Positions 7,309 to 27,797 of a DNA stretch of 32,000 bases are shown in pieces. Where the stretch lies: positions 808 to 32,807 of the forward strand of contig CAYJVY010000008.1 in NCBI GenBank assembly GCA_964373795.1. Direction: 5' to 3'. The notes under the pieces are model-generated. The model had not been told where the DNA came from and searched no databases. It saw nothing but the letters and a program-made list of their open reading frames with translations. The DNA comes from an uncultured archaeon. GTDB taxonomy: Archaea; Iainarchaeota; Iainarchaeia; Iainarchaeales; DATDZZ01. Position 1 is the stretch's first letter. Every line of letters starts with the position of its first letter. The translations under genes were made by a program, and so were the position numbers.

Positions 7309-7426
7309 GATTAGCAGCGTTTAGGATGCTCCAAGCAAAAACTCAGTGCAAACCTTTTCGCAGACAGGCTTAACTTCTGGGTTCGAGATGAGACCAGGTG
7401 TTTCACTGTCGCTTTGACCGCTAATC
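7309..7426 (-). rRNA. rrf: 5S ribosomal RNA
   Basis: The reverse complement reads GATTAGCGGTCAAAGCGACAGTGAAACACCTGGTCTCATCTCGAACCCAGAAGTTAAGCC...GCTGCTAATC. It contains the universal 5S core (GAAACACC..GGTC.CAT..CGAACCC.GAAGTTAAGC). The termini pair (GATTAGC/GCTAATC), the length is about 118 nt, and the local GC is well above the surroundings. Confidence 0.85.
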
Positions 7427-19114: not shown

Positions 19115-19369
19115 CTAATTTTTAATTTTTGTTACATCAAAGAGCTCTAAAATAATTTTTTTCAATTCTTTTTCATTTACTTTAAGTTTTTTAGAAAAAT
19201 AGTTCAAATGCTTTAACAGTTCTTGTTTAATGAATTCAGGTGAAAATAGTTTAAGTTCATTATTAATTAAAAGCATTTTTCTTGTTGTGGAATCTTTTAA
19301 TAAAGCTGCAATAATAATGTTTGCATCTATTACTATAATTTGTTTTTTCAAAAGATCACAGCCATTCAA
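19115..19369 (-). CDS. PIN-domain toxin, N-terminal half only (probably truncated VapC-like)
   Basis: 84 aa. IIVIDANIIIAAL carries the first PIN acidic residue. The ORF ends 2 nt from the convergent L11 stop, before the C-terminal acidic residues expected in a ~130-aa PIN domain. Confidence 0.45.
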   Translation of the reverse strand: MNGCDLLKKQIIVIDANIIIAALLKDSTTRKMLLINNELKLFSPEFIKQELLKHLNYFSKKLKVNEKELKKIILELFDVTKIKN

Positions 19370-19608
19370 ACATTTAATCCATGTTTTTTAGCTATTTCTT
19401 TATTTATTCTTCTACCTAGTTCTATGGCGTCTTCTTCTGTTAATTCGCTATTTTTTGTTAATTCATCAAATTTTTTTAATACTCTTAATCTTTTTACACG
19501 CTCTTCTAAAAAACGTCGCGTTTCTTCCGACCAATTAACCTCTCTAAACTGCTTTAATTCATTTTTCAATTTTGTTGGAACAGATAAAGTTAAGGTAACT
19601 TTATTCAT
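19366..19608 (-). CDS. putative VapB-like antitoxin
   Basis: 80-aa charged ORF overlapping the PIN ORF by 4 nt. A palindromic sequence lies just upstream of it. No strong family call. Confidence 0.45.
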   Translation of the reverse strand: MNKVTLTLSVPTKLKNELKQFREVNWSEETRRFLEERVKRLRVLKKFDELTKNSELTEEDAIELGRRINKEIAKKHGLNV

Positions 19609-19770: not shown

Positions 19771-20973
19771 TTACTTATCCTCTTTCACTATTTCTCCAGG
19801 CAAAGTAGTTGTTCTCGGAGAAAGTTTTACTCCTGGATAAAAAGAGGAATTAATTCCTATTTTGCAGTTGTCTCCAAAAATTGCTCCAAGTTTTTTTCTT
19901 CCAGAATCAATTTTCTCTCCTTTCAAAATTGATTTAACGTTCGCATGATCGTGCCTTAAGTTTGCAGTAATTGTTCCAGCGCCTAAATTACAGTTTTCTC
20001 CAATCACTGAGTCTCCTACATAGCTTAAATGAGGAATCTTTGTTCCATTTTCAATAACAGAATTTTTTACTTCAACTGCTTGTCCGATCTTGCAACCATT
20101 CATTATTGATGTGTTTCCTCTAATAAAACAATTTGGGCCAATTTCACAGTTCTCTCCAATGAAAACATTGCCTTCAATATAAGTTCCGCTTTTCAGTGTA
20201 CTGCCTTTTCCTAAACTAATTTTTCCTTTAATATGCACTCCTTCCTCAATAATTCCTTCAATTTTGTTTTCCTTTAAACTTCCAACAAAAAACTCGTTTG
20301 CCTTAAGTAAATCCCATGGATATGCAATTGGGAACCAGTAATCTAAAACTTTTTCCACGAAAACCTTTTCTTTTTCTGTAACTAAAAATTTTAAGTAATC
20401 AACTAATTCAAATTCTTTTCTTTCCGAAAGCTGTAATTTGTGTTTGAAAATTTTTTTGTTTAAAACATACAAGCCAGTGCCAACTAACTTGCTTTTCGGG
20501 TTTAAAGGTTTTTCCACGAAACCTTTCAACAAATTTTTCTCAGCTTCGATTACGCCGAATTTTTCTGCGTCCTGCCTTTCTGCAGCAAGAACACAAAACT
20601 CTTTTTTCACGCAGTTTTTCAAATCTTTTGCTGAATAAAAGTCATCTCCATTCATTACAATAAATTTGTCCTTCAATTTTTTTTCGCAGAGATGTAAAGC
20701 TTGTCCAGTGCCTTGAGGATTATTTTGTTCAATAAAAGAAATTTTTAATTTCAGCTTCTCTGCAACTTTTTTTGTATGTTCAATTAATTGTGCTTTCTCG
20801 AATCCAACTACAAGAATTATTTCTTCCAGTTCTTTTCCAGTTGCTTGCTTGATTTGCTCCAAATTGTGTTCAAGAATTGTTTTTCCTGCAACTTTCAGTA
20901 AAGGTTTTGGCTTGTTTACAGTTAAAGGCCAGGTTCTAGTGCTTTTTCCTGCGCATAATAAAACAAATTGCAT
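19771..20973 (-). CDS. bifunctional sugar-1-phosphate nucleotidyltransferase / left-handed beta-helix acetyltransferase (archaeal GlmU-like)
   Basis: N-terminal LCAGKSTRTWPLT.NKPKPLL motif and C-terminal hexapeptide repeats (IGENCEIGPNCFIRGNTSI...). It sits in an operon with glmS and glmM. Confidence 0.8.
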   Translation of the reverse strand: MQFVLLCAGKSTRTWPLTVNKPKPLLKVAGKTILEHNLEQIKQATGKELEEIILVVGFEKAQLIEHTKKVAEKLKLKISFIEQNNPQGTGQALHLCEKKLKDKFIVMNGDDFYSAKDLKNCVKKEFCVLAAERQDAEKFGVIEAEKNLLKGFVEKPLNPKSKLVGTGLYVLNKKIFKHKLQLSERKEFELVDYLKFLVTEKEKVFVEKVLDYWFPIAYPWDLLKANEFFVGSLKENKIEGIIEEGVHIKGKISLGKGSTLKSGTYIEGNVFIGENCEIGPNCFIRGNTSIMNGCKIGQAVEVKNSVIENGTKIPHLSYVGDSVIGENCNLGAGTITANLRHDHANVKSILKGEKIDSGRKKLGAIFGDNCKIGINSSFYPGVKLSPRTTTLPGEIVKEDK

Positions 20974-20976
20974 TTT

Positions 20977-21741
20977 TCATTCCCCAATTTTTTTTAAATA
21001 TTTAATTATTTGTTCGTGAATTAATCCATTGCTTGCAATTAAGTCTCTTGAAGTTGTTTGCCATTCTTTTCCTTGCCAGTTAGTTACTTTTCCTCCGGCT
21101 TCTCTTACAAGTATGGTTCCAGCAGCAATATCGTATAACTCGTAGTCTCCTCCGAATCTTGCATCCATTCTTCCAATAGCAACATTAGCTAAATCTAATG
21201 CCGAACTTCTAGTTATTTTAATTCGCCTAGATATTTGAATTATTTCAATGTTTTTTTCTAGGTCTCTTCGCCTTGATGACAAACCTATAGTGGATTCATC
21301 TAATATTTTGTATTTTGAAACATGGATTGGTTTTTCATTGAGATATGCTCCTTTTCCTTTTTCTGCATAGAAAAGTTCTTTTCTGCAAGGATCTAAAGTC
21401 ACTCCCACAATGACTTCTGAATTTTTAATTAAAGCAATTGTAATGCAAAAATATGCAAACCCTCTTTCAAAGTTTCCAGTGCCATCTAGTGGGTCAATAG
21501 TCCATAAGTAATCTGAATTTTTTGTCTGTTTTCCAAATTCTTCTCCGTAAAAAGAGTGCTCTGGAAATTCAGCTGAAATTATTTCAATTATTTTTTTCTC
21601 TGCTTCTTTGTCTGCTTGTGTTACTGTAGAGCCATCTGCTTTTTTTTCTGAAACAAATTCTTTATCAAAATACCTCATTGCAATTTTTCCAGCCGCTTTT
21701 ACAGCCTTTATTGCAATTTTCAATTCTTTTGATTTATTCAT
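20977..21741 (-). CDS. inositol monophosphatase family protein (IMPase/FBPase-like)
   Basis: EE.G and WTIDPLDGTGNF motifs. 254 aa. Confidence 0.85.
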   Translation of the reverse strand: MNKSKELKIAIKAVKAAGKIAMRYFDKEFVSEKKADGSTVTQADKEAEKKIIEIISAEFPEHSFYGEEFGKQTKNSDYLWTIDPLDGTGNFERGFAYFCITIALIKNSEVIVGVTLDPCRKELFYAEKGKGAYLNEKPIHVSKYKILDESTIGLSSRRRDLEKNIEIIQISRRIKITRSSALDLANVAIGRMDARFGGDYELYDIAAGTILVREAGGKVTNWQGKEWQTTSRDLIASNGLIHEQIIKYLKKIGE

Positions 21742-22361
21742 TTTAAGCCTCTTCTTCTTTGATTTATCCTTGATTGAGATTTATTTCTTTTTCTAATTCT
21801 TCTTTCTTTTTTTTGTTTTAATGCAATTCCATATGATGTTCCTTTTGTCAGAGTAAGACCTTCATCAATATTTATTCTTCTTCTATCAATTTTTAGTTTA
21901 AACCGTAAATGGTTTTCCACATCGTATACACAGTCTTCTTTGTATTCCCCAAATAAATTAAATCTTGTTTCACTTGAAGCATTTAATCCTTTTCTTTTCA
22001 ATTCTTCTACTATTGAATTTACTTGCCCAACCACTCCAATTTGATTCATTGGAATAACAACTATTCTTTCTTGTAATTCTTTTTCAGCAAATCCAACTAG
22101 TTTTAATAATTCTGGTAATTTACTTAATCCATCTATGGAAGTTGGAAGCAAGATAACTAGAACGCTTTTTTCTCTTCCTTTTACTTTTTGAATTTGTTTG
22201 CCCCAATGCATTTTAAGTGCTTGAACGCCTTGAAAAAATCTTTTTCTATGTGCTTTGTTAGTGAACAAATCTTTTTCCAAGTTTGGACGCAGTGTGCTTT
22301 GCAGTCGAACGTAATACTCATACAATGGGTGAATTAATACATTTATTTCTTCTACATCCAT
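21738..22361 (-). CDS. uncharacterised paralogue family, copy 1 (NVLIHPLY ... FGEYKEDCV ... basic tail)
   Basis: 207 aa, alignable with the three ORFs upstream of it. The stop overlaps the IMPase ATG by 4 nt. The C-terminus reads KQKKERRIRKRNKSQSRINQRRRGLK. Confidence 0.6.
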   Translation of the reverse strand: MDVEEINVLIHPLYEYYVRLQSTLRPNLEKDLFTNKAHRKRFFQGVQALKMHWGKQIQKVKGREKSVLVILLPTSIDGLSKLPELLKLVGFAEKELQERIVVIPMNQIGVVGQVNSIVEELKRKGLNASSETRFNLFGEYKEDCVYDVENHLRFKLKIDRRRINIDEGLTLTKGTSYGIALKQKKERRIRKRNKSQSRINQRRRGLK

Positions 22362-22367
22362 TTTTTT

Positions 22368-22964
22368 TCACACTCTTCTAGGAGTATTTCTTTTTCCAGG
22401 CCTTATTTTTGGAGAATCTCTTTTTTTTCTATTAGTGTGTGAAGGTCTTTTGTATCCAGTATATCCTTTTCCACGTCTTTTAGAACTTTCTGGAAAGCTT
22501 AGCTGTTTTTCTATTTCTATTTCTTCCTTTTCCAGTGTTCTTAATGCGCCGCAAACAAGTGGAACACAGTATTCTTTGTGTTCTCCGAATACCTTAAACC
22601 TTGTTTCGTTTGAGACTTCAAATTTTTTTGATAATTCATGAAATGCTTTAAACATTTGTTGTTCAGCTGTGAGTCCTGGAAAACCAAAAACTATAACTAA
22701 TTTGTCTCCTAATTCTTTTCTTGCAAAATCAATTAATTTTTTTAATTCTCTTTCTGCATTATTAGTTGGTTGGGAATCTGAAAGCAATGGATGTAAGATT
22801 ATGAATGCAGAATTAGGAGTTCTTGTAACTTCGCGCATTCTTTGCATCCAACGTCCTGTAAGAATTTTTACTCCTTGAAGCTGTCTTCCAAATTCTTGTG
22901 GGTCTTGCACTCCAAGTAATTCATCCAATGGATGAACTAATACATTTACTTCTCTGAGTTGCAT
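22368..22964 (-). CDS. uncharacterised paralogue family, copy 2
   Basis: MQLREVNVLVHPL, NSAFIIL, FARKEL, ETRFKVFGEHKEYCV, IEIEKQL, GYTGYKRP and a basic tail. The start at 22964 is chosen for congruence with the other copies. The ORF-track start is 22973. Confidence 0.6.
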   Translation of the reverse strand: MQLREVNVLVHPLDELLGVQDPQEFGRQLQGVKILTGRWMQRMREVTRTPNSAFIILHPLLSDSQPTNNAERELKKLIDFARKELGDKLVIVFGFPGLTAEQQMFKAFHELSKKFEVSNETRFKVFGEHKEYCVPLVCGALRTLEKEEIEIEKQLSFPESSKRRGKGYTGYKRPSHTNRKKRDSPKIRPGKRNTPRRV

Positions 22965-22982
22965 AAAAATCATTAATTAATT

Positions 22983-23597
22983 TCAAATTCTTGTTCTTGG
23001 TTTGTTTTTTCTTCCTGAACGAAGCTTTGTTTTGCCGACAATTTTTCTTCTTGTTCTTGGTTTGTAATATTCTTCATAGTTTGCTCTTTCAGATGCATGA
23101 CTTAGAGGACTCTTTATTTCGATTCTTTTACGATCTATATGTAGATTATATTTTGGTGCAAAGAGACGCAAATGTTCTGACACTGATGTAACACATCTAT
23201 GTTCATGTTCACCAAAAAGAACAAAACGTGTATTTGGTCCAATATTCACTCTATACTCTTGCATCATTGTGAGCATTAGTTGTGTCTGCTCCCATATTGA
23301 TTCCCTAGGCGGCACAACTATTAGTCTACTTACTAATTCCCTTTTTGCAAACGCGATTAGTTTTTCAACATCTTTTGGATCATCTTTTTTTATGCGTGGG
23401 GTAAAAATTACAAGAACACTATTTGGATTGCCTTTTATTTGTAAAATTTTTTTTCCCCAATAGAATTTCAAAAACTTTGCTCCATGCAAACCTTTTGTTA
23501 CGCGATCCACTTTCTTTCTTCTAGCTTTGGGTATACGGTGTAATTCTAAATAGTCATACAATGGATGAACTAAAACATTCAATTCTTCAACTTCCAT
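22983..23597 (-). CDS. uncharacterised paralogue family, copy 3
   Basis: MEVEELNVLVHPLY, WGKKI, NSVLVIF, FAKREL, NTRFVLFGEHEHRCV, RKRIEIK and a basic tail. The start may instead be 23603. Confidence 0.6.
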   Translation of the reverse strand: MEVEELNVLVHPLYDYLELHRIPKARRKKVDRVTKGLHGAKFLKFYWGKKILQIKGNPNSVLVIFTPRIKKDDPKDVEKLIAFAKRELVSRLIVVPPRESIWEQTQLMLTMMQEYRVNIGPNTRFVLFGEHEHRCVTSVSEHLRLFAPKYNLHIDRKRIEIKSPLSHASERANYEEYYKPRTRRKIVGKTKLRSGRKNKPRTRI

Positions 23598-23946
23598 TTT
23601 CAAAACCTTCTCGGAGTGTTTCTTCTTCCTGATCTAGTTTTAGGTTTTCCAAACTCTTTTCTTCTTTCAACTGGTTTTTTTTGTATCTAGTGTAGCCTGT
23701 TTTCCTTTTTGTATCGTAAAGGGAAAGACCGAGTCTTTTGTCAATTTCGACTCTTTTCATTCCTAGTTCCATATCTGGGTTTGTTGCAACTTCTTTAATT
23801 CTCCGCCCCCAAAGACTTCTAAGAATTTTTGAGGTATTGAATTCTCTGTCAGAACTTTCATGAACCTCCTCAAATAATGCATAGAATGGATGTCTTAGTA
23901 AGTCATACAGCAGATGAACTAAAACATTGACTTGTGTTAACTCCAT
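23587..23946 (-). CDS. uncharacterised paralogue family, copy 4: internally deleted, possibly decaying
   Basis: 119 aa. It keeps the N-terminal module (VNVLVHLLYD, WGRRIKEVATNPD) and the C-terminal module (KRVEIDKRL, TGYTRYKK). It lacks the ~90-aa central part that holds the FGEH..CV motif. The tail is acidic, and the ORF overlaps the copy 3 start. Confidence 0.45.
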   Translation of the reverse strand: MELTQVNVLVHLLYDLLRHPFYALFEEVHESSDREFNTSKILRSLWGRRIKEVATNPDMELGMKRVEIDKRLGLSLYDTKRKTGYTRYKKNQLKEEKSLENLKLDQEEETLREGFENGS

Positions 23947-23952
23947 AAATAA

Positions 23953-25308
23953 TCAAATACCAATTTCTTTCTTAATTTCTTCTGCGATTTTGTTTGCATA
24001 TTCTTCTATTTGTTTTTGGTTTTCTCCTTCAATCATTATTCTTGCAAGATTTTCTGTTCCACTGTAACGAATAAGTGTTCTTCCATTGCCTGAAAGCTTT
24101 TCCTCGACTTCTTGAATTGCTTTTTTCACTGAAGGCATTTCATTGAATTCAATTTTTTCTTTCACGCACACGTTCACTAGAACTTGTGGAAATGATTTCA
24201 TTATTGTTGCAAGCTTTGATAGTTTTTCTTTTTTTTCTTTCATTATTTTCAATAACTGTAAAGCAGTAATTATTCCATCTCCTGTAGTTGAATACTTGGA
24301 AAAAATTATGTGCCCTGATTGTTCTCCTCCTAAAACTATTTTTCTTTTACGCATTTCATCTATTACGTATTTGTCTCCAACAGCTGTTTTGAATATTTTT
24401 ACTCCGAGTTTTTGCATTGCTTTATCAAATCCTAAATTAGTCATTACTGTTACTACAACTGAGTTTTCATCTAACCTGTTTTTTTCCATTAAATTATTTA
24501 CACAAATAGCCATTATGTGGTCTCCGTCCACAAAGTTTCCTTTTTCATCTGAAACAATTACTCTATCTGCATCTCCGTCTAAAGCAATTCCTAAATCTGC
24601 TTTTTCTTCTAAAACTTTTTTCTGCATTTCTTGTGGATGCGTTGCTCCGCAATTCAAGTTAATGTTTTGTCCATCTGGTTTGCTGTTCATTACAATTACT
24701 TTTGCTCCTAGTTCTGAAAAAATTTTTGGAGCTACATCGTATGCTGCTCCGTTAGCGCAATCTAAGACTATTTTCATTCCTTCTAATGACTCTGATTTAA
24801 TTGAGGATTTTGCAAACTCTATATACCTGCCTTTTGCATCGTCTATTCTATATGCTTTTCCAATTTTTGTTGCAGGAGCATAAACTGATTTCATTTTTTC
24901 TTCTAAAACTAGTTTTTCTATTTGTTCTTCAACTTTTTCATCTAATTTAAATCCATCCTCATTGAAGATTTTTATTCCATTGTCTTGAGAAGGATTATGT
25001 GAAGCAGAGATAACAATTCCTGCTTCTGCATTCAATGACTTAGTTAAATGAGCTATTGCAGGAGTAGGCATTGGTCCTACAAGTAAAACGTTTGCTCCCA
25101 TTGAAACAATTCCACTCGTAAGCGCGGATTCAATCATATAACCACTTAAACGAGTGTCTTTTCCTATAACAATTTTTGGAGTTCCATTTCCTGAATGTTC
25201 TTTAAAATAATTTGCTGCTGCTTTTCCAATCAAAAGTGCAAGCTCTGGAACCATTGGATAAACATTTGCAGTAGCCCTAATTCCATCTGTTCCAAACAAT
25301 TTGCCCAT
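23953..25308 (-). CDS. glmM: phosphoglucosamine mutase (phosphohexomutase superfamily)
   Basis: GIVISASHNPSQDNGIK active-site Ser loop, LDGDADR metal loop and GEQSGH sugar loop. ATG at 25308 with a GGTGA SD. Confidence 0.9.
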   Translation of the reverse strand: MGKLFGTDGIRATANVYPMVPELALLIGKAAANYFKEHSGNGTPKIVIGKDTRLSGYMIESALTSGIVSMGANVLLVGPMPTPAIAHLTKSLNAEAGIVISASHNPSQDNGIKIFNEDGFKLDEKVEEQIEKLVLEEKMKSVYAPATKIGKAYRIDDAKGRYIEFAKSSIKSESLEGMKIVLDCANGAAYDVAPKIFSELGAKVIVMNSKPDGQNINLNCGATHPQEMQKKVLEEKADLGIALDGDADRVIVSDEKGNFVDGDHIMAICVNNLMEKNRLDENSVVVTVMTNLGFDKAMQKLGVKIFKTAVGDKYVIDEMRKRKIVLGGEQSGHIIFSKYSTTGDGIITALQLLKIMKEKKEKLSKLATIMKSFPQVLVNVCVKEKIEFNEMPSVKKAIQEVEEKLSGNGRTLIRYSGTENLARIMIEGENQKQIEEYANKIAEEIKKEIGI

Positions 25309-25313
25309 TTTTT

Positions 25314-25961
25314 TCACCAACTCAAAATTTGATCAATATTAATTTCTTTCAAAGAATTCACAATTAAGTTTGCTTCTTTCAAATCCTCTTCTGTAGTGTA
25401 ATTACTCTTTAATGCAATGCATTTCATTCCAGCTCTTCTAGCAGCTTTGACTCCATTAAATGTGTCTTCGATTACTACACAGTTTTTTGGTTTTTCATTT
25501 AAATCCTTTGCTGTTTTCAGAAAAATGTCTGGAGCTGGTTTGGAATTTGCAACATTTTCTGCGGAGTTTGTTATTTCAAAATATTTTGCAATATTTAATT
25601 TATTTAAAATTATTTTAATTTCTTTAACTGAAGAAGAAGTCGCTAAACCAATTTTTGTATTTCTTTTTTTGAAAGCTTTAACTAACTCAATTGCTCCATC
25701 AATTGGTTTCAATTCTTTTTTCAGCATTTCAAAATAGTTTTCCCTTCTCTCAGCTATTAATTTTTCAATGCTTGGAGGTAAATTATATTTTTCTTTTAAA
25801 TGTGTCCAAACTTCTTTTGCTCCTCTTCCCATGCCATAAATATAATCTTCTTCATCTAATTTTGCATTGAACCTTTTTAACACAATATTATCTGCTTTGT
25901 CATGTACTTTTTCTGTATCAACTATTACTCCGTCCATGTCAAAAATAATTGCTTTAATCAT
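25314..25961 (-). CDS. HAD-superfamily hydrolase, subfamily IA (beta-phosphoglucomutase/phosphatase-like)
   Basis: IIFDMDGVIVDTE motif I, ATSS motif II and a K...EDTFNG motif III/IV. I prefer the internal ATG at 25961 because it avoids overlap with glmS. Confidence 0.8.
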   Translation of the reverse strand: MIKAIIFDMDGVIVDTEKVHDKADNIVLKRFNAKLDEEDYIYGMGRGAKEVWTHLKEKYNLPPSIEKLIAERRENYFEMLKKELKPIDGAIELVKAFKKRNTKIGLATSSSVKEIKIILNKLNIAKYFEITNSAENVANSKPAPDIFLKTAKDLNEKPKNCVVIEDTFNGVKAARRAGMKCIALKSNYTTEEDLKEANLIVNSLKEINIDQILSW

Positions 25962-25977
25962 TTGTTTTTCACCAATG

Positions 25978-27741
25978 TCATTTAACTGTAACACTTTTTG
26001 CAAGGTTGCGTGGGTAATCTGGATTGATGCCTTTTCTAATGCTTACAAAATATGCAAGTAATTGAATTGGAATTAAATTCATTAATGGAAAGAATTTTTC
26101 TGTTGCAGGGACTTGAATGAATTCTCCAATTCCAGGATTTTCAGATCCAATGCAAATTACTTTTGCTCCGCGAGATTTCACTGTATTTGCATTGCTTAAA
26201 GTGTCATTTTTTGTTTCATCTTCTGAAAGCAATACAATGCAAGGAATTCCTTCCTCAATTAGCGCTAGAGGCCCATGCTTTATTTCTCCTCCAGGAAAAC
26301 CAATTACTGGAAGATAGCAAACTTCTTGCAATTTAATTGCAGCTTCAAGCGCAATAGGGTAATTCATTCCTCTACCCAAAACAAACAATTTTTCCTTGGA
26401 TTTAATTTTTTCCGCCAGGGTTTGAATTTGTTCAATGAAAGAATTGTTTGAAAGCAATTTACTTAAATCGTTTAAAGCTTTTTCTAATTCTTTGCTGTTT
26501 TTTTCAAAAGAGTTTGAAAGCAAAAACGCAAGCACGTAAGCAATAATTATTTGTCCAGTAGTTGATTTAGTTGAAGCAACTGCTTTTTCAATTCCTGCAC
26601 AAACAGGAATTACTATATTCGATTTGCGATGCATTGAAGTGTTTTCAGCGTTAATTATTGAAACAATTTTTGCCCCGCGTGATTTTGCAATTTCTATTGC
26701 TTCAAGAGTATCAGCTGTTTCTCCTGATTGAGAAACAGCAATTACAATTGTTTTTTCATTAACGAATTTTGCAAAGTTTTCGAATTCAGATGAAACGCAT
26801 GCAATGCATTCCTTTCCTCCAAATCTTGAAAAAATATATTGAGCAAGTAAAGCAACTTTGTGTGCAGTGCCTGCTCCAATAATGAAAACTTTTTCTGCTT
26901 TTTTAATTATTTCAGCTGCTTTAAGTGCTTCTTGTTTGCTTTCTTTAAAAGCTTGAAAAACAGAAAACTTTTGATCCATTATTTCTTTTAACATTAAATG
27001 TTCAAACACGTTTTCTTCACTTTTATTGTTTCTGTTTATTTCTTCAATTCTTTTTTTTACTTTAACTTCTTTTTTTGAATTTAAGTCAATAATTTTGATT
27101 TTGGAATTCATTGAAGTCATTTCATTGTCCTCTAAATAAATTGCTTTTCTCACTTTAAGTGGAAATGCTTGAATATCTGATGCTATAAAGAATTGTTTTT
27201 TATTTATTCCTATAATCAATGGTGAACCATTTTTTACTCCAATGATTTCATTAAAATCTTCATGCATTGCAACGAAAGCATATCTTCCTTCAAGTTTTTT
27301 TACAGCTTCAAAAACTGCTTCTTCAAAGTTTTTTTTCTGGCAAAAAAATTCAATTAATTGAGGAATGACCTCTGAATCTGTTTCAGTTTCAAAAATTATT
27401 CCTTTTCCTTGCAAGAAACTCTTTATTTCTTGAAAGTTTTCAATTATTCCATTATGCACTACAGAAATTTTTTTATTTAAAGAAAAAATTGGATGAGTGT
27501 TTTCCAAGCAAACCTTTCCATGTGTTGCCCACCTAGTATGCCCAATTGCTTCAAGGCTTGGAATTTTTTTTTCAAGCAAAGCTGAACTAATTTTTCCAAC
27601 TTTTTTCACTGTTTCTAAGGAATTGTGTTTTTTGAAGGCAATTCCCCAAGAATCGTATCCTCTATATTCAAGTTTTTTTAATCCTTCAAAAACTAGTTGA
27701 ACTGCTTGAGTAGAGTTAATTGCTCCAATTATTCCACACAT
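25978..27741 (-). CDS. glmS: glutamine--fructose-6-phosphate aminotransferase (isomerising)
   Basis: MCGIIG N-terminal nucleophile Cys, two SIS domains and a C-terminal NLAKSVTVK. The start is set at 27741 so that Cys is residue 2. Confidence 0.95.
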   Translation of the reverse strand: MCGIIGAINSTQAVQLVFEGLKKLEYRGYDSWGIAFKKHNSLETVKKVGKISSALLEKKIPSLEAIGHTRWATHGKVCLENTHPIFSLNKKISVVHNGIIENFQEIKSFLQGKGIIFETETDSEVIPQLIEFFCQKKNFEEAVFEAVKKLEGRYAFVAMHEDFNEIIGVKNGSPLIIGINKKQFFIASDIQAFPLKVRKAIYLEDNEMTSMNSKIKIIDLNSKKEVKVKKRIEEINRNNKSEENVFEHLMLKEIMDQKFSVFQAFKESKQEALKAAEIIKKAEKVFIIGAGTAHKVALLAQYIFSRFGGKECIACVSSEFENFAKFVNEKTIVIAVSQSGETADTLEAIEIAKSRGAKIVSIINAENTSMHRKSNIVIPVCAGIEKAVASTKSTTGQIIIAYVLAFLLSNSFEKNSKELEKALNDLSKLLSNNSFIEQIQTLAEKIKSKEKLFVLGRGMNYPIALEAAIKLQEVCYLPVIGFPGGEIKHGPLALIEEGIPCIVLLSEDETKNDTLSNANTVKSRGAKVICIGSENPGIGEFIQVPATEKFFPLMNLIPIQLLAYFVSIRKGINPDYPRNLAKSVTVK

Positions 27742-27797
27742 GATAAAAAAGTACTGCAAGGCAGATATTTAAAGACTTATAAATAAAACTTCAATCC

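Follow-up and report, generated by a model that had tools for sequence, protein, structure and literature searches.

A tandem array of genes from an unnamed, mainly DPANN protein family within a glmS-to-glmU cluster of an uncultured archaeon

Four tandem genes between glmM and an IMPase-family gene

We analysed a stretch of 32,000 nucleotides (nt), hereafter the window, from contig CAYJVY010000008.1 (assembly GCA_964373795.1) of an uncultured archaeon of the Iainarchaeota, a lineage placed in the Nanobdellati, i.e. DPANN. The subject of this study is a tandem array of four genes on its minus strand. An earlier note on this DNA had described four consecutive minus-strand open reading frames (ORFs) tightly packed between glmM and an IMPase gene, and the coordinates confirmed this arrangement, with gaps of 9 nt or less. 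Copy 1 (21738..22361, minus strand, 207 aa) is intact and carries the motifs NVLIHPLY, WGKQI, RIVVI and LFGEYKEDCV, and its last 30 residues have a net charge of +13. Copy 2 (22368..22973, minus strand, 201 aa) is also intact, with NVLVHPLD and VFGEHKEYCV, a change of WG to WM and a change of the conserved Arg to Lys; its true start is probably Met4 (22964), which is typical of the family. The third intact gene, copy 3 (22983..23597, minus strand, 204 aa), carries NVLVHPLY, WGKKI and LFGEHEHRCV. As a listed ORF it extends over 22983-23603 from a TTG start (206 aa); translation almost certainly begins instead at the ATG at 23597 (MEVEEL..., 204 aa), and the 204-aa product is the gene call in public assemblies (P0005). 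Copy 4 (23587..23946, minus strand, 119 aa in frame 0) is degenerate, with the N-terminal ~58 aa kept and the core deleted. The spacing is 6 nt between glmM and copy 4, 9 nt between copies 3 and 2, and 6 nt between copies 2 and 1; copies 4 and 3 either overlap by 11 nt (frame 0) or are separated by 2 nt (-1 frame), and copy 1 overlaps the IMPase-family gene by 4 nt (ATGA).

We then assessed the paralogy of the four ORFs in a formal pairwise test. The BLASTP results were far above chance, as the earlier note had supposed: E values were 1e-16 for copies 1 and 2, 1e-31 for copies 1 and 3, and 2e-24 for copies 2 and 3, with 30-35% identity over nearly the full length, while copy 4 matched copy 3 at E 5e-8 over the N-terminal 60 aa only. 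Hidden Markov model (HMM) E values for the copies ranged from 1e-8 to 1e-40. The shared motif blocks that had been proposed were all present in the alignment, except that copy 2 has WMQRM in place of WG[KR]xI. At the nucleotide level, 20-24 of 27 positions of the N-terminal block are identical between copies, compared with the 18-20 of 27 expected from conserved amino acids and genome codon bias; the nucleotide conservation reported for this block is thus real, but only slightly above expectation. Gene conversion or a DNA-level element was considered as its cause and rejected, since codon bias accounts for most of it. In a neighbour-joining tree of 154 family members, copies 1, 2 and 3 were mutual closest relatives and formed their own clade, indicating that the array arose in situ; the copies have reached their present divergence despite this origin. 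The region is a locally generated tandem expansion, comprising three intact genes and one decayed remnant.

Copy 4 and its reading frame

Copy 4 retains residues 1-58, in which the otherwise invariant His-Pro is now His-Leu, and has lost about 95 aa of the core in an internal deletion that includes G-x-R and FGE..C. The sequence resumes at the equivalent of copy 3 residue 154, continues through a short homologous stretch and ends in a new acidic tail. With HL in place of HP and the core deleted, it fails the family signature described below. The annotated frame leaves the ancestral one at a run of eight A residues (A8; 23675..23682, minus strand), where a -1 shift would be needed, and the -1 frame past this run reads KKPVERRKEFGKPKTRSGRRNTPRRF before a stop. 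Alignment to the tails of copies 2 and 3 showed that the -1 frame of the 3' end (23600..23683, minus strand) holds the ancestral basic tail, QKKPVERRKEFGKPKTRSGRRNTPRRF followed by a stop. This tail is 51% identical to that of copy 2 over 35 aa (E 6e-8) and matches that of copy 3 at E 3e-7, and its stop at 23600-23602 lies 2 nt ahead of the copy 3 ATG. The loss of the core with the FGE..C block, the acidic tail and the overlap with the start of copy 3 had all been reported before, and each was found again. On account of the deletion, the change of HP to HL and the A8 frameshift, we read copy 4 as an old decaying remnant rather than a programmed-frameshift gene.

The alternative is that copy 4 encodes a real mini-protein, made of the N-terminal helices and the basic tail, whose synthesis involves programmed -1 frameshifting, or else slippage during transcription, at A_AAA_AAC within the A8 run. 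The restored tail, which ends exactly before the copy 3 start, would fit this, as would the match of the A8 sequence to the X_XXY_YYZ slippery pattern and the identical 119-aa frame-0 product called on 3 contigs. However, the RNA downstream of the A8 run showed nothing unusual that might stimulate a shift (minimum free energy -7.7 kcal/mol, z-score +0.8), copy 4 lacks the core domain and has another residue for the invariant Pro, and A-runs are common in a genome with the 31% G+C of the window. We therefore regard a functional mini-protein as highly improbable.

An unnamed family centred on DPANN archaea

The genomes of DPANN archaea are tiny, with a large share of genes unannotated, and families retained across these reduced genomes are likely to be important for the symbiotic lifestyle. 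The four copies had no match in Pfam, NCBIfam, PHROGs, PADLOC or the PDB sequences. When 36 family members were scanned singly against Pfam, NCBIfam, PHROGs and PADLOC, no credible match was obtained; a DUF2102 match (E 0.025) in one of the 36 was taken as chance. The family profile returned nothing from the PDB sequences at E <=10, and public sources label these proteins 'hypothetical protein' or leave them nameless. The claim that the family is unrecognised therefore stands for Pfam, NCBIfam, PHROGs, PADLOC and PDB sequences.

A word-indexed homologue search recovered the window's own proteins and one relative (P0004), and later 15 matches; an exhaustive HMMER search was needed to reveal the family. 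In this search, a five-sequence profile was compared with 1.84 billion cluster representatives, yielding 203 clusters (50% identity) at E <=1e-3 and 54 at E <=1e-10. Almost all matches are 180-280 aa long and most are aligned over the greater part of the profile. Homologues thus exist elsewhere, and the family is not lineage-specific in the narrow sense that had been suggested, since its 203 or more clusters at 50% identity extend over the DPANN archaea and perhaps to one bacterium of the candidate phyla radiation (CPR). A pattern-limited scan of GTDB species representatives with a 13-sequence sub-alignment found at least five loci, in three Candidatus (Ca.) Iainarchaeum metagenome-assembled genomes (MAGs), one unclassified archaeal MAG and one Ca. 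Paceibacterota (CPR) MAG; the homologue in the last (locus L018) has no basic tail. Directly upstream of this tail-less homologue, a UDP-glucose/GDP-mannose dehydrogenase gene is split by an intein with a LAGLIDADG domain (L018, 2738-5476, plus strand). Further loci carry archaeal markers, namely Cdc6 and RFC in L020 and the proteasome and aCPSF1 in L027. A metagenome scan gave two loci, apparently repeats of L014 and L015, and no family member was found in the IMG/VR viral contigs scanned. These proteins form a real, unnamed family centred mainly on DPANN archaea.

It has been documented in archaeal proteome surveys that DPANN genomes hold many conserved, lineage-specific hypothetical families (PMC8204110, PMC9258230). 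The present family resembles those described there in being conserved, unannotated and mainly restricted to DPANN. In contrast to them, what defines it here is a set of motifs, a model of its fold and the way in which it forms tandem arrays, and we could map it to none of the identifiers in the accessible parts of these surveys. It is best seen as one such hypothetical family, now with a signature, a fold and a candidate active site.

Conserved signature and basic tail

Conservation was computed over 161 aligned members and numbered according to copy 3, whose sequence was also the query for the structure model. The results revealed a signature, [LIV]-V-H-P ... [WY] ... G-x-R ... [FY]-G-E-[YW]-x3-C-V, that spans about 160 aa and is 89-99% conserved among the members. 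The N-terminal block consists of Leu9 (84%), Val10 (89%), His11 (94%) and Pro12 (95%), and is followed by Trp or Tyr at position 47 (98%), Pro58 (75%), Gly89 (75%) and Arg91 (93%). The second dense block contains Phe or Tyr at position 128 (85%), Gly129 (99%), Glu130 (89%), Cys135 (99%) and Val136 (89%), and Ser166 (70%) lies beyond it. The mean column identity within the family is 22%. Copies 1 to 3 carry the signature residues H, P, W, R/K, G, E, C and V. Among the residues singled out by the earlier note as candidate ligands or catalytic groups, three are conserved throughout the family, namely the His of strand 1, the Glu and the Cys, while the His or Tyr after the Glu is not conserved in identity.

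The C-terminus of most members is strongly basic. The last 30 residues have a net charge of at least +4 in 142 of the 161 members, the median isoelectric point (pI) is 10.1, and in copies 1 to 3 this charge is +11 to +13. Many members share a loose tail motif, LG[ST][FM]x[EQ][DN][LI]R, followed by RR[KR]-rich sequence.

Predicted fold and comparison with known enzymes

We modelled copy 3 with AlphaFold2 on an alignment of 36 sequences, and obtained a confident model with a predicted local distance difference test score (pLDDT) of 89.5 and a predicted template modelling score (pTM) of 0.83. It replaced an earlier model based on 5 sequences (pLDDT 69), which gave generic Foldseek matches only. 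The model agrees with the Rossmann-like α/β fold that had been proposed from the alternating hydrophobic blocks. Its secondary structure comprises β1 (residues 2-10), helices (14-55), a strand (60-65), a helix (76-91), a strand (92-95), a helix (101-114), a strand (118-130), a helix (132-150), a short strand (159-161) and a low-confidence tail. In the model, His11-Pro12 lie at the C-terminal end of β1, Gly129-Glu130 end the strand 118-130, and Cys135-Val136 lie at the N-terminus of the next helix; the conserved Arg91 opens strand 3 rather than closing it.

A Foldseek search against the PDB returned no match below E 1e-3. The top match was N-carbamoylsarcosine amidase 3eef_A (E 5e-3, probability 1.00, template modelling (TM) scores 0.44/0.51, root-mean-square deviation 7.0 Å), which was the only isochorismatase-like member in the top 50. 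A search of a viral fold library gave nothing informative. We also built an isochorismatase profile from E. coli YcaC, EntB (N-terminal domain), RutB and PncA, for which further homologues were near-identical EntB or RutB sequences only. In hhalign, the family segment L..L..RGF...FGEYxxxCV was aligned with the isochorismatase segment L..L...G...G..T..CV, Cys on Cys and with equal Gly-to-Cys spacing, and the same register was obtained with PncA alone and with RutB alone. Control profiles scored worse: TusBCD, RpiB, the window's HAD protein and its IMPase-family protein gave P 0.2-0.4, compared with 0.028 for the isochorismatase profile. Judged by sequence and model, Gly129-x5-Cys135-Val136 has the spacing and the secondary-structure place of the isochorismatase nucleophile motif G-x-x-[TS]-x-x-C-V.

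The family and the isochorismatase-like hydrolases (PF00857; 3eef, PncA, RutB, YcaC) appear, from the model, to share a three-layer α/β/α Rossmann-like domain of similar size. They have in common a segment of the form helix(L..L...G)-strand-G-x5-C-V-helix with identical Gly-to-Cys spacing, and a conserved polar residue right after hydrophobic strand 1. However, His-Pro occupies the place of the catalytic Asp after strand 1, the conserved Lys is absent and there is no significant similarity. The conserved Glu after the Gly is not a feature of PF00857, and the family further differs in a long helical insert between strands 1 and 2, in the missing last strand or strands and in the added basic C-terminal tail. 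A PF00857 profile match was sought in Pfam for 36 members (E <=1-10) and not found, and membership of PF00857 is unsupported, with no significant Pfam, PDB or hhalign match. The isochorismatase resemblance to which the earlier note had alluded is therefore weak: the top Foldseek match and the Cys register speak for it, while the E value of 5e-3, the hhalign probability of 1.8% and the missing Asp and Lys do not.

Three other known groups were compared. HAD phosphatases share with the family the Rossmann-like fold, a helical insert directly after strand 1 (C1-cap-like) and a G-[DE] motif ending the post-crossover strand, and weak Foldseek matches were obtained with the Lem4 HAD domain, phage deoxynucleoside monophosphate phosphatases and EYA2. 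However, HP stands in place of DxD, and neither the motif II Ser/Thr nor the motif III Lys is present. HAD superfamily membership was rejected on the basis of hhalign against the window's HAD protein (P 0.38), the lack of a Pfam HAD match and the absence of DxD. LmbE/PIG-L deacetylases, which act on N-acetylglucosamine (GlcNAc), likewise combine a Rossmann-like fold with His-Pro directly after a hydrophobic strand 1, and the window array lies in a GlcNAc-related operon; but the family has neither the Asp-Asp of HPDD nor the zinc ligands of the distal HxxH, and its residues after HP are [FL]-[YF]. LmbE/PIG-L identity was not retained, as there was no PF02585 match and the sole fold match ranked 39th (E 0.24) in the viral fold search. 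The DsrE/TusD sulfur carriers were likewise set aside, with an hhalign P of 0.33 over 11 columns against E. coli TusB/C/D.

Gene neighbourhoods in the window and in other genomes

The array lies in a tight cluster of nine same-strand genes, namely glmS, HAD, glmM, copies 4, 3, 2 and 1, the IMPase-family gene and glmU, and NCBIfam/TIGR matches bore out the names previously given to the flanking genes. The first genes of the cluster (25314..27759) are glmS (25978-27759, minus strand; TIGR01135, 587 bits) and a HAD-IA/beta-PGM-family hydrolase gene (25314-26003, minus strand; NCBIfam, below equivalog cut-offs). Directly upstream of the array in the operon is glmM, encoding phosphoglucosamine mutase (23953..25320, minus strand; TIGR01455, 617 bits). 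Downstream are the gene for an IMPase/FBPase-family phosphatase (20977..21741, minus strand; below every NCBIfam equivalog cut-off), which overlaps the copy 1 stop, and a gene for an archaeal bifunctional GlmU-type sugar-1-phosphate nucleotidylyltransferase/acetyltransferase (19771..20973, minus strand; TIGR03992, 463 bits). Gaps of at most 9 nt on one strand imply a single transcript across the array and its neighbours, and we infer that the nine genes from glmS to glmU are co-transcribed. As a separate observation, GlmM of the window scored 617 bits with TIGR01455, above its cut-off, versus 361 bits with the archaeal model TIGR03990, below its cut-off, which hints at a non-archaeal-type origin of this glmM.

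To place the array in a wider context, we compared the neighbourhoods of 17 distinct loci (the window and 16 others). Neither glmS, glmM nor glmU was found next to a family gene in any of the 16 other loci. These neighbours occur in the window only, indicating that the context of uridine diphosphate GlcNAc (UDP-GlcNAc) is local and not a property of the family, and the functional coupling to amino-sugar genes that had been postulated is not supported by this comparison. The only immediate neighbour common to separate family clades is a HTH_24/AsnC-type regulator, which lies directly upstream and on the same strand in 4 of the 17 loci, representing two family clades (L001, 1103-1843; L019, 1553-2206; L015, 5455-5937; L016, 5455-5928). 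Topoisomerase I follows the family gene in two Iainarchaeum loci, L015 and L016. Further loci have NIF3 and a P-type ATPase, a cytidylate-kinase-like gene and FKBP, a PP-loop ATPase, α/β-hydrolases, glycosyltransferases and radical-SAM genes, or UDP-sugar dehydrogenases as neighbours.

These neighbourhoods bear on the idea that the family is an accessory enzyme of amino-sugar or nucleotide-sugar metabolism, e.g. a deacetylase, isomerase or amidase acting on glucosamine or GlcNAc derivatives, and that its place in the UDP-GlcNAc operon has a functional basis. The array leaves no intergenic space between itself and glmM on one side and IMPase/glmU on the other; L003 adjoins GT4/GT2 and epimerase genes, and L018 adjoins genes for a PMT_2 glycosyltransferase and for UDP-glucose dehydrogenases. 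The His-Pro that follows strand 1 is also faintly like the HPDD of LmbE/PIG-L deacetylases. However, glmS, glmM and glmU are not adjacent to the family gene in any of the 16 other loci, where the neighbours include AsnC-type regulators, topoisomerase I, NIF3, P-type ATPase, the cytidylate-kinase-like gene, FKBP and α/β-hydrolases. Nor does the family have the LmbE zinc motif (HPDD...HxxH); LmbE appeared no higher than rank 39, and chance adjacency to sugar genes is likely because glycosylation genes are abundant in DPANN and CPR genomes. We consider an amino-sugar role quite unlikely, and the survey speaks against the tempting assignment of the family to UDP-GlcNAc synthesis.

Tandem arrays recur in two other loci. 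In Ca. Iainarchaeum sp. STA_60 (L016, 5974-7172, plus strand), two tandem copies lie between the AsnC-type regulator and the topoisomerase I gene, and in another archaeal MAG (L020; GCA_053535375.1, contig JAIYJI010000003.1, 5322-7216, plus strand) there are three. The first copy of L020 has Tyr for the invariant His and lacks the invariant Cys, a parallel to copy 4, the degenerate first copy of the window array. Such arrays might also be expected of a fast-evolving family of host-interaction, conflict or effector proteins of episymbiotic archaea, in which duplication, divergence and decay reflect an arms race and the Arg-rich tail serves delivery or targeting. The mean column identity of only 22%, the 30-35% identity of paralogues within one array, the recurrence of tandem arrays with degenerate copies (window, L016, L020) and the distribution centred on DPANN symbionts are all compatible with this. 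But neither a signal peptide nor a secretion-system context was noted, there was no PADLOC or PHROGs match and none in IMG/VR viral contigs, and the active-site-like residues are strongly conserved, which is typical of a housekeeping enzyme. An effector role accordingly appears improbable.

Proposed function

The reading that we prefer, with a probability of roughly 40%, is that the intact proteins are thiol-dependent enzymes with a Cys-His(-Glu) centre, anchored to a polyanion by the basic tail, and that their genes belong to the operon only through the position of the array. Each intact protein is predicted to consist of a compact Rossmann-like α/β domain of about 160 aa and an Arg/Lys-rich, poorly ordered tail of 30-45 aa. 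The near-invariant His-Pro, Gly-Glu and Cys-Val are predicted to lie where Rossmann-like enzymes have their active sites, in a layout that would be that of the isochorismatase-like Cys nucleophile with His in place of Asp. The Cys may act as nucleophile and the His as base, with the Glu orienting the His, and the protein could be a hydrolase, an amidase or a group-transfer enzyme. The basic tail would hold it on a polyanionic partner, e.g. RNA or DNA. Co-transcription with glmS-HAD-glmM...IMPase-glmU would follow solely from the array lying inside the operon. A cysteine-hydrolase-like mode of action on an isochorismatase-type scaffold is plausible, and the family probably represents a known enzyme architecture in a strongly derived form.

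Several results weigh against this proposal. No sequence or profile method ties the family significantly to a known enzyme (Pfam, NCBIfam, PDB sequences, hhalign 1.8%). The hhalign alignment with isochorismatases is weak (E 0.35 with the 36-sequence profile, P 0.028 with the 161-sequence profile, probability 0.2-1.8%), and across the 161 members the Asp and Lys of the isochorismatase triad are absent, with His-Pro at the Asp position and no conserved Lys. All Foldseek matches have E values above 1e-3 and TM-scores of at most 0.51, and those below the top are generic Rossmann-like proteins (FNR, HAD and HUP-class enzymes, G6PD). The spatial clustering of His, Glu and Cys is deduced from the topology of the model rather than from its coordinates. 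The 17 neighbourhoods have no consistent functional theme. Moreover, 19 of the 161 members have no basic tail, which may thus be dispensable, and most major ORF products of the window have a pI of about 9-10, i.e. the whole proteome is basic; a high pI is therefore weak evidence for nucleic-acid binding in the present organism.

The same residues could instead serve a non-hydrolytic role. In this alternative, His, Glu and Cys would bind a metal (Zn or Fe), or else the Cys would serve as a persulfide carrier or redox switch, in a small nucleic-acid- or ribosome-associated factor or sulfur carrier that binds through its tail and whose paralogues hetero-oligomerise, inactive subunits included. 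A single invariant Cys together with His and Glu fits metal or persulfide chemistry as well as catalysis, and the strongly basic tails carry the semi-conserved LG[ST][FM]x[EQ][DN][LI]R...RR[KR]. At one locus, a PP-loop ATPase gene (tRNA-thiolation/TilS type) lies 25 nt downstream, and arrays in which one copy is short of the His and/or the Cys were seen twice (copy 4 of the window and the first of three in L020). On the other hand, hhalign showed no more than P 0.33 with the DsrE/TusBCD sulfur carriers, the PP-loop neighbour occurs at a single locus, and there is no second conserved Cys or His to finish the usual tetrahedral metal site within one chain. We regard this alternative as rather doubtful.

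A wider form of the thiol-enzyme proposal is that the family is a hitherto undescribed DPANN enzyme family, perhaps also present in CPR, with a Cys-His-Glu centre on an isochorismatase-like scaffold and an Arg-rich tail by which it acts on RNA, DNA or substrates linked to nucleotides. Its tandem paralogues would work together as hetero-oligomers, with some of the subunits catalytically dead. This combination is unlikely, but if true it would add a new reaction or regulatory module, one confined to ultra-small symbionts. Taken alone, the family is one more DUF-like unannotated family with a common fold, useful but unsurprising to a specialist. It is now testable through its signature, confident fold model, candidate His/Glu/Cys site, taxonomic range and habit of forming arrays with degenerate copies.

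Other features of the window

The window also carries ribosomal protein genes, L11 and L1-L10-P1, a cluster that marks it as archaeal. A stand-alone 5S rRNA gene, the sole rRNA in the window, was found at 7309-7425 (minus strand; Rfam RF00001, 73.7 bits). A toxin-antitoxin-like small pair with RHH_12 and PIN_2 domains (19115-19608, minus strand) stands between the glmU-type gene and that of ribosomal protein L11.

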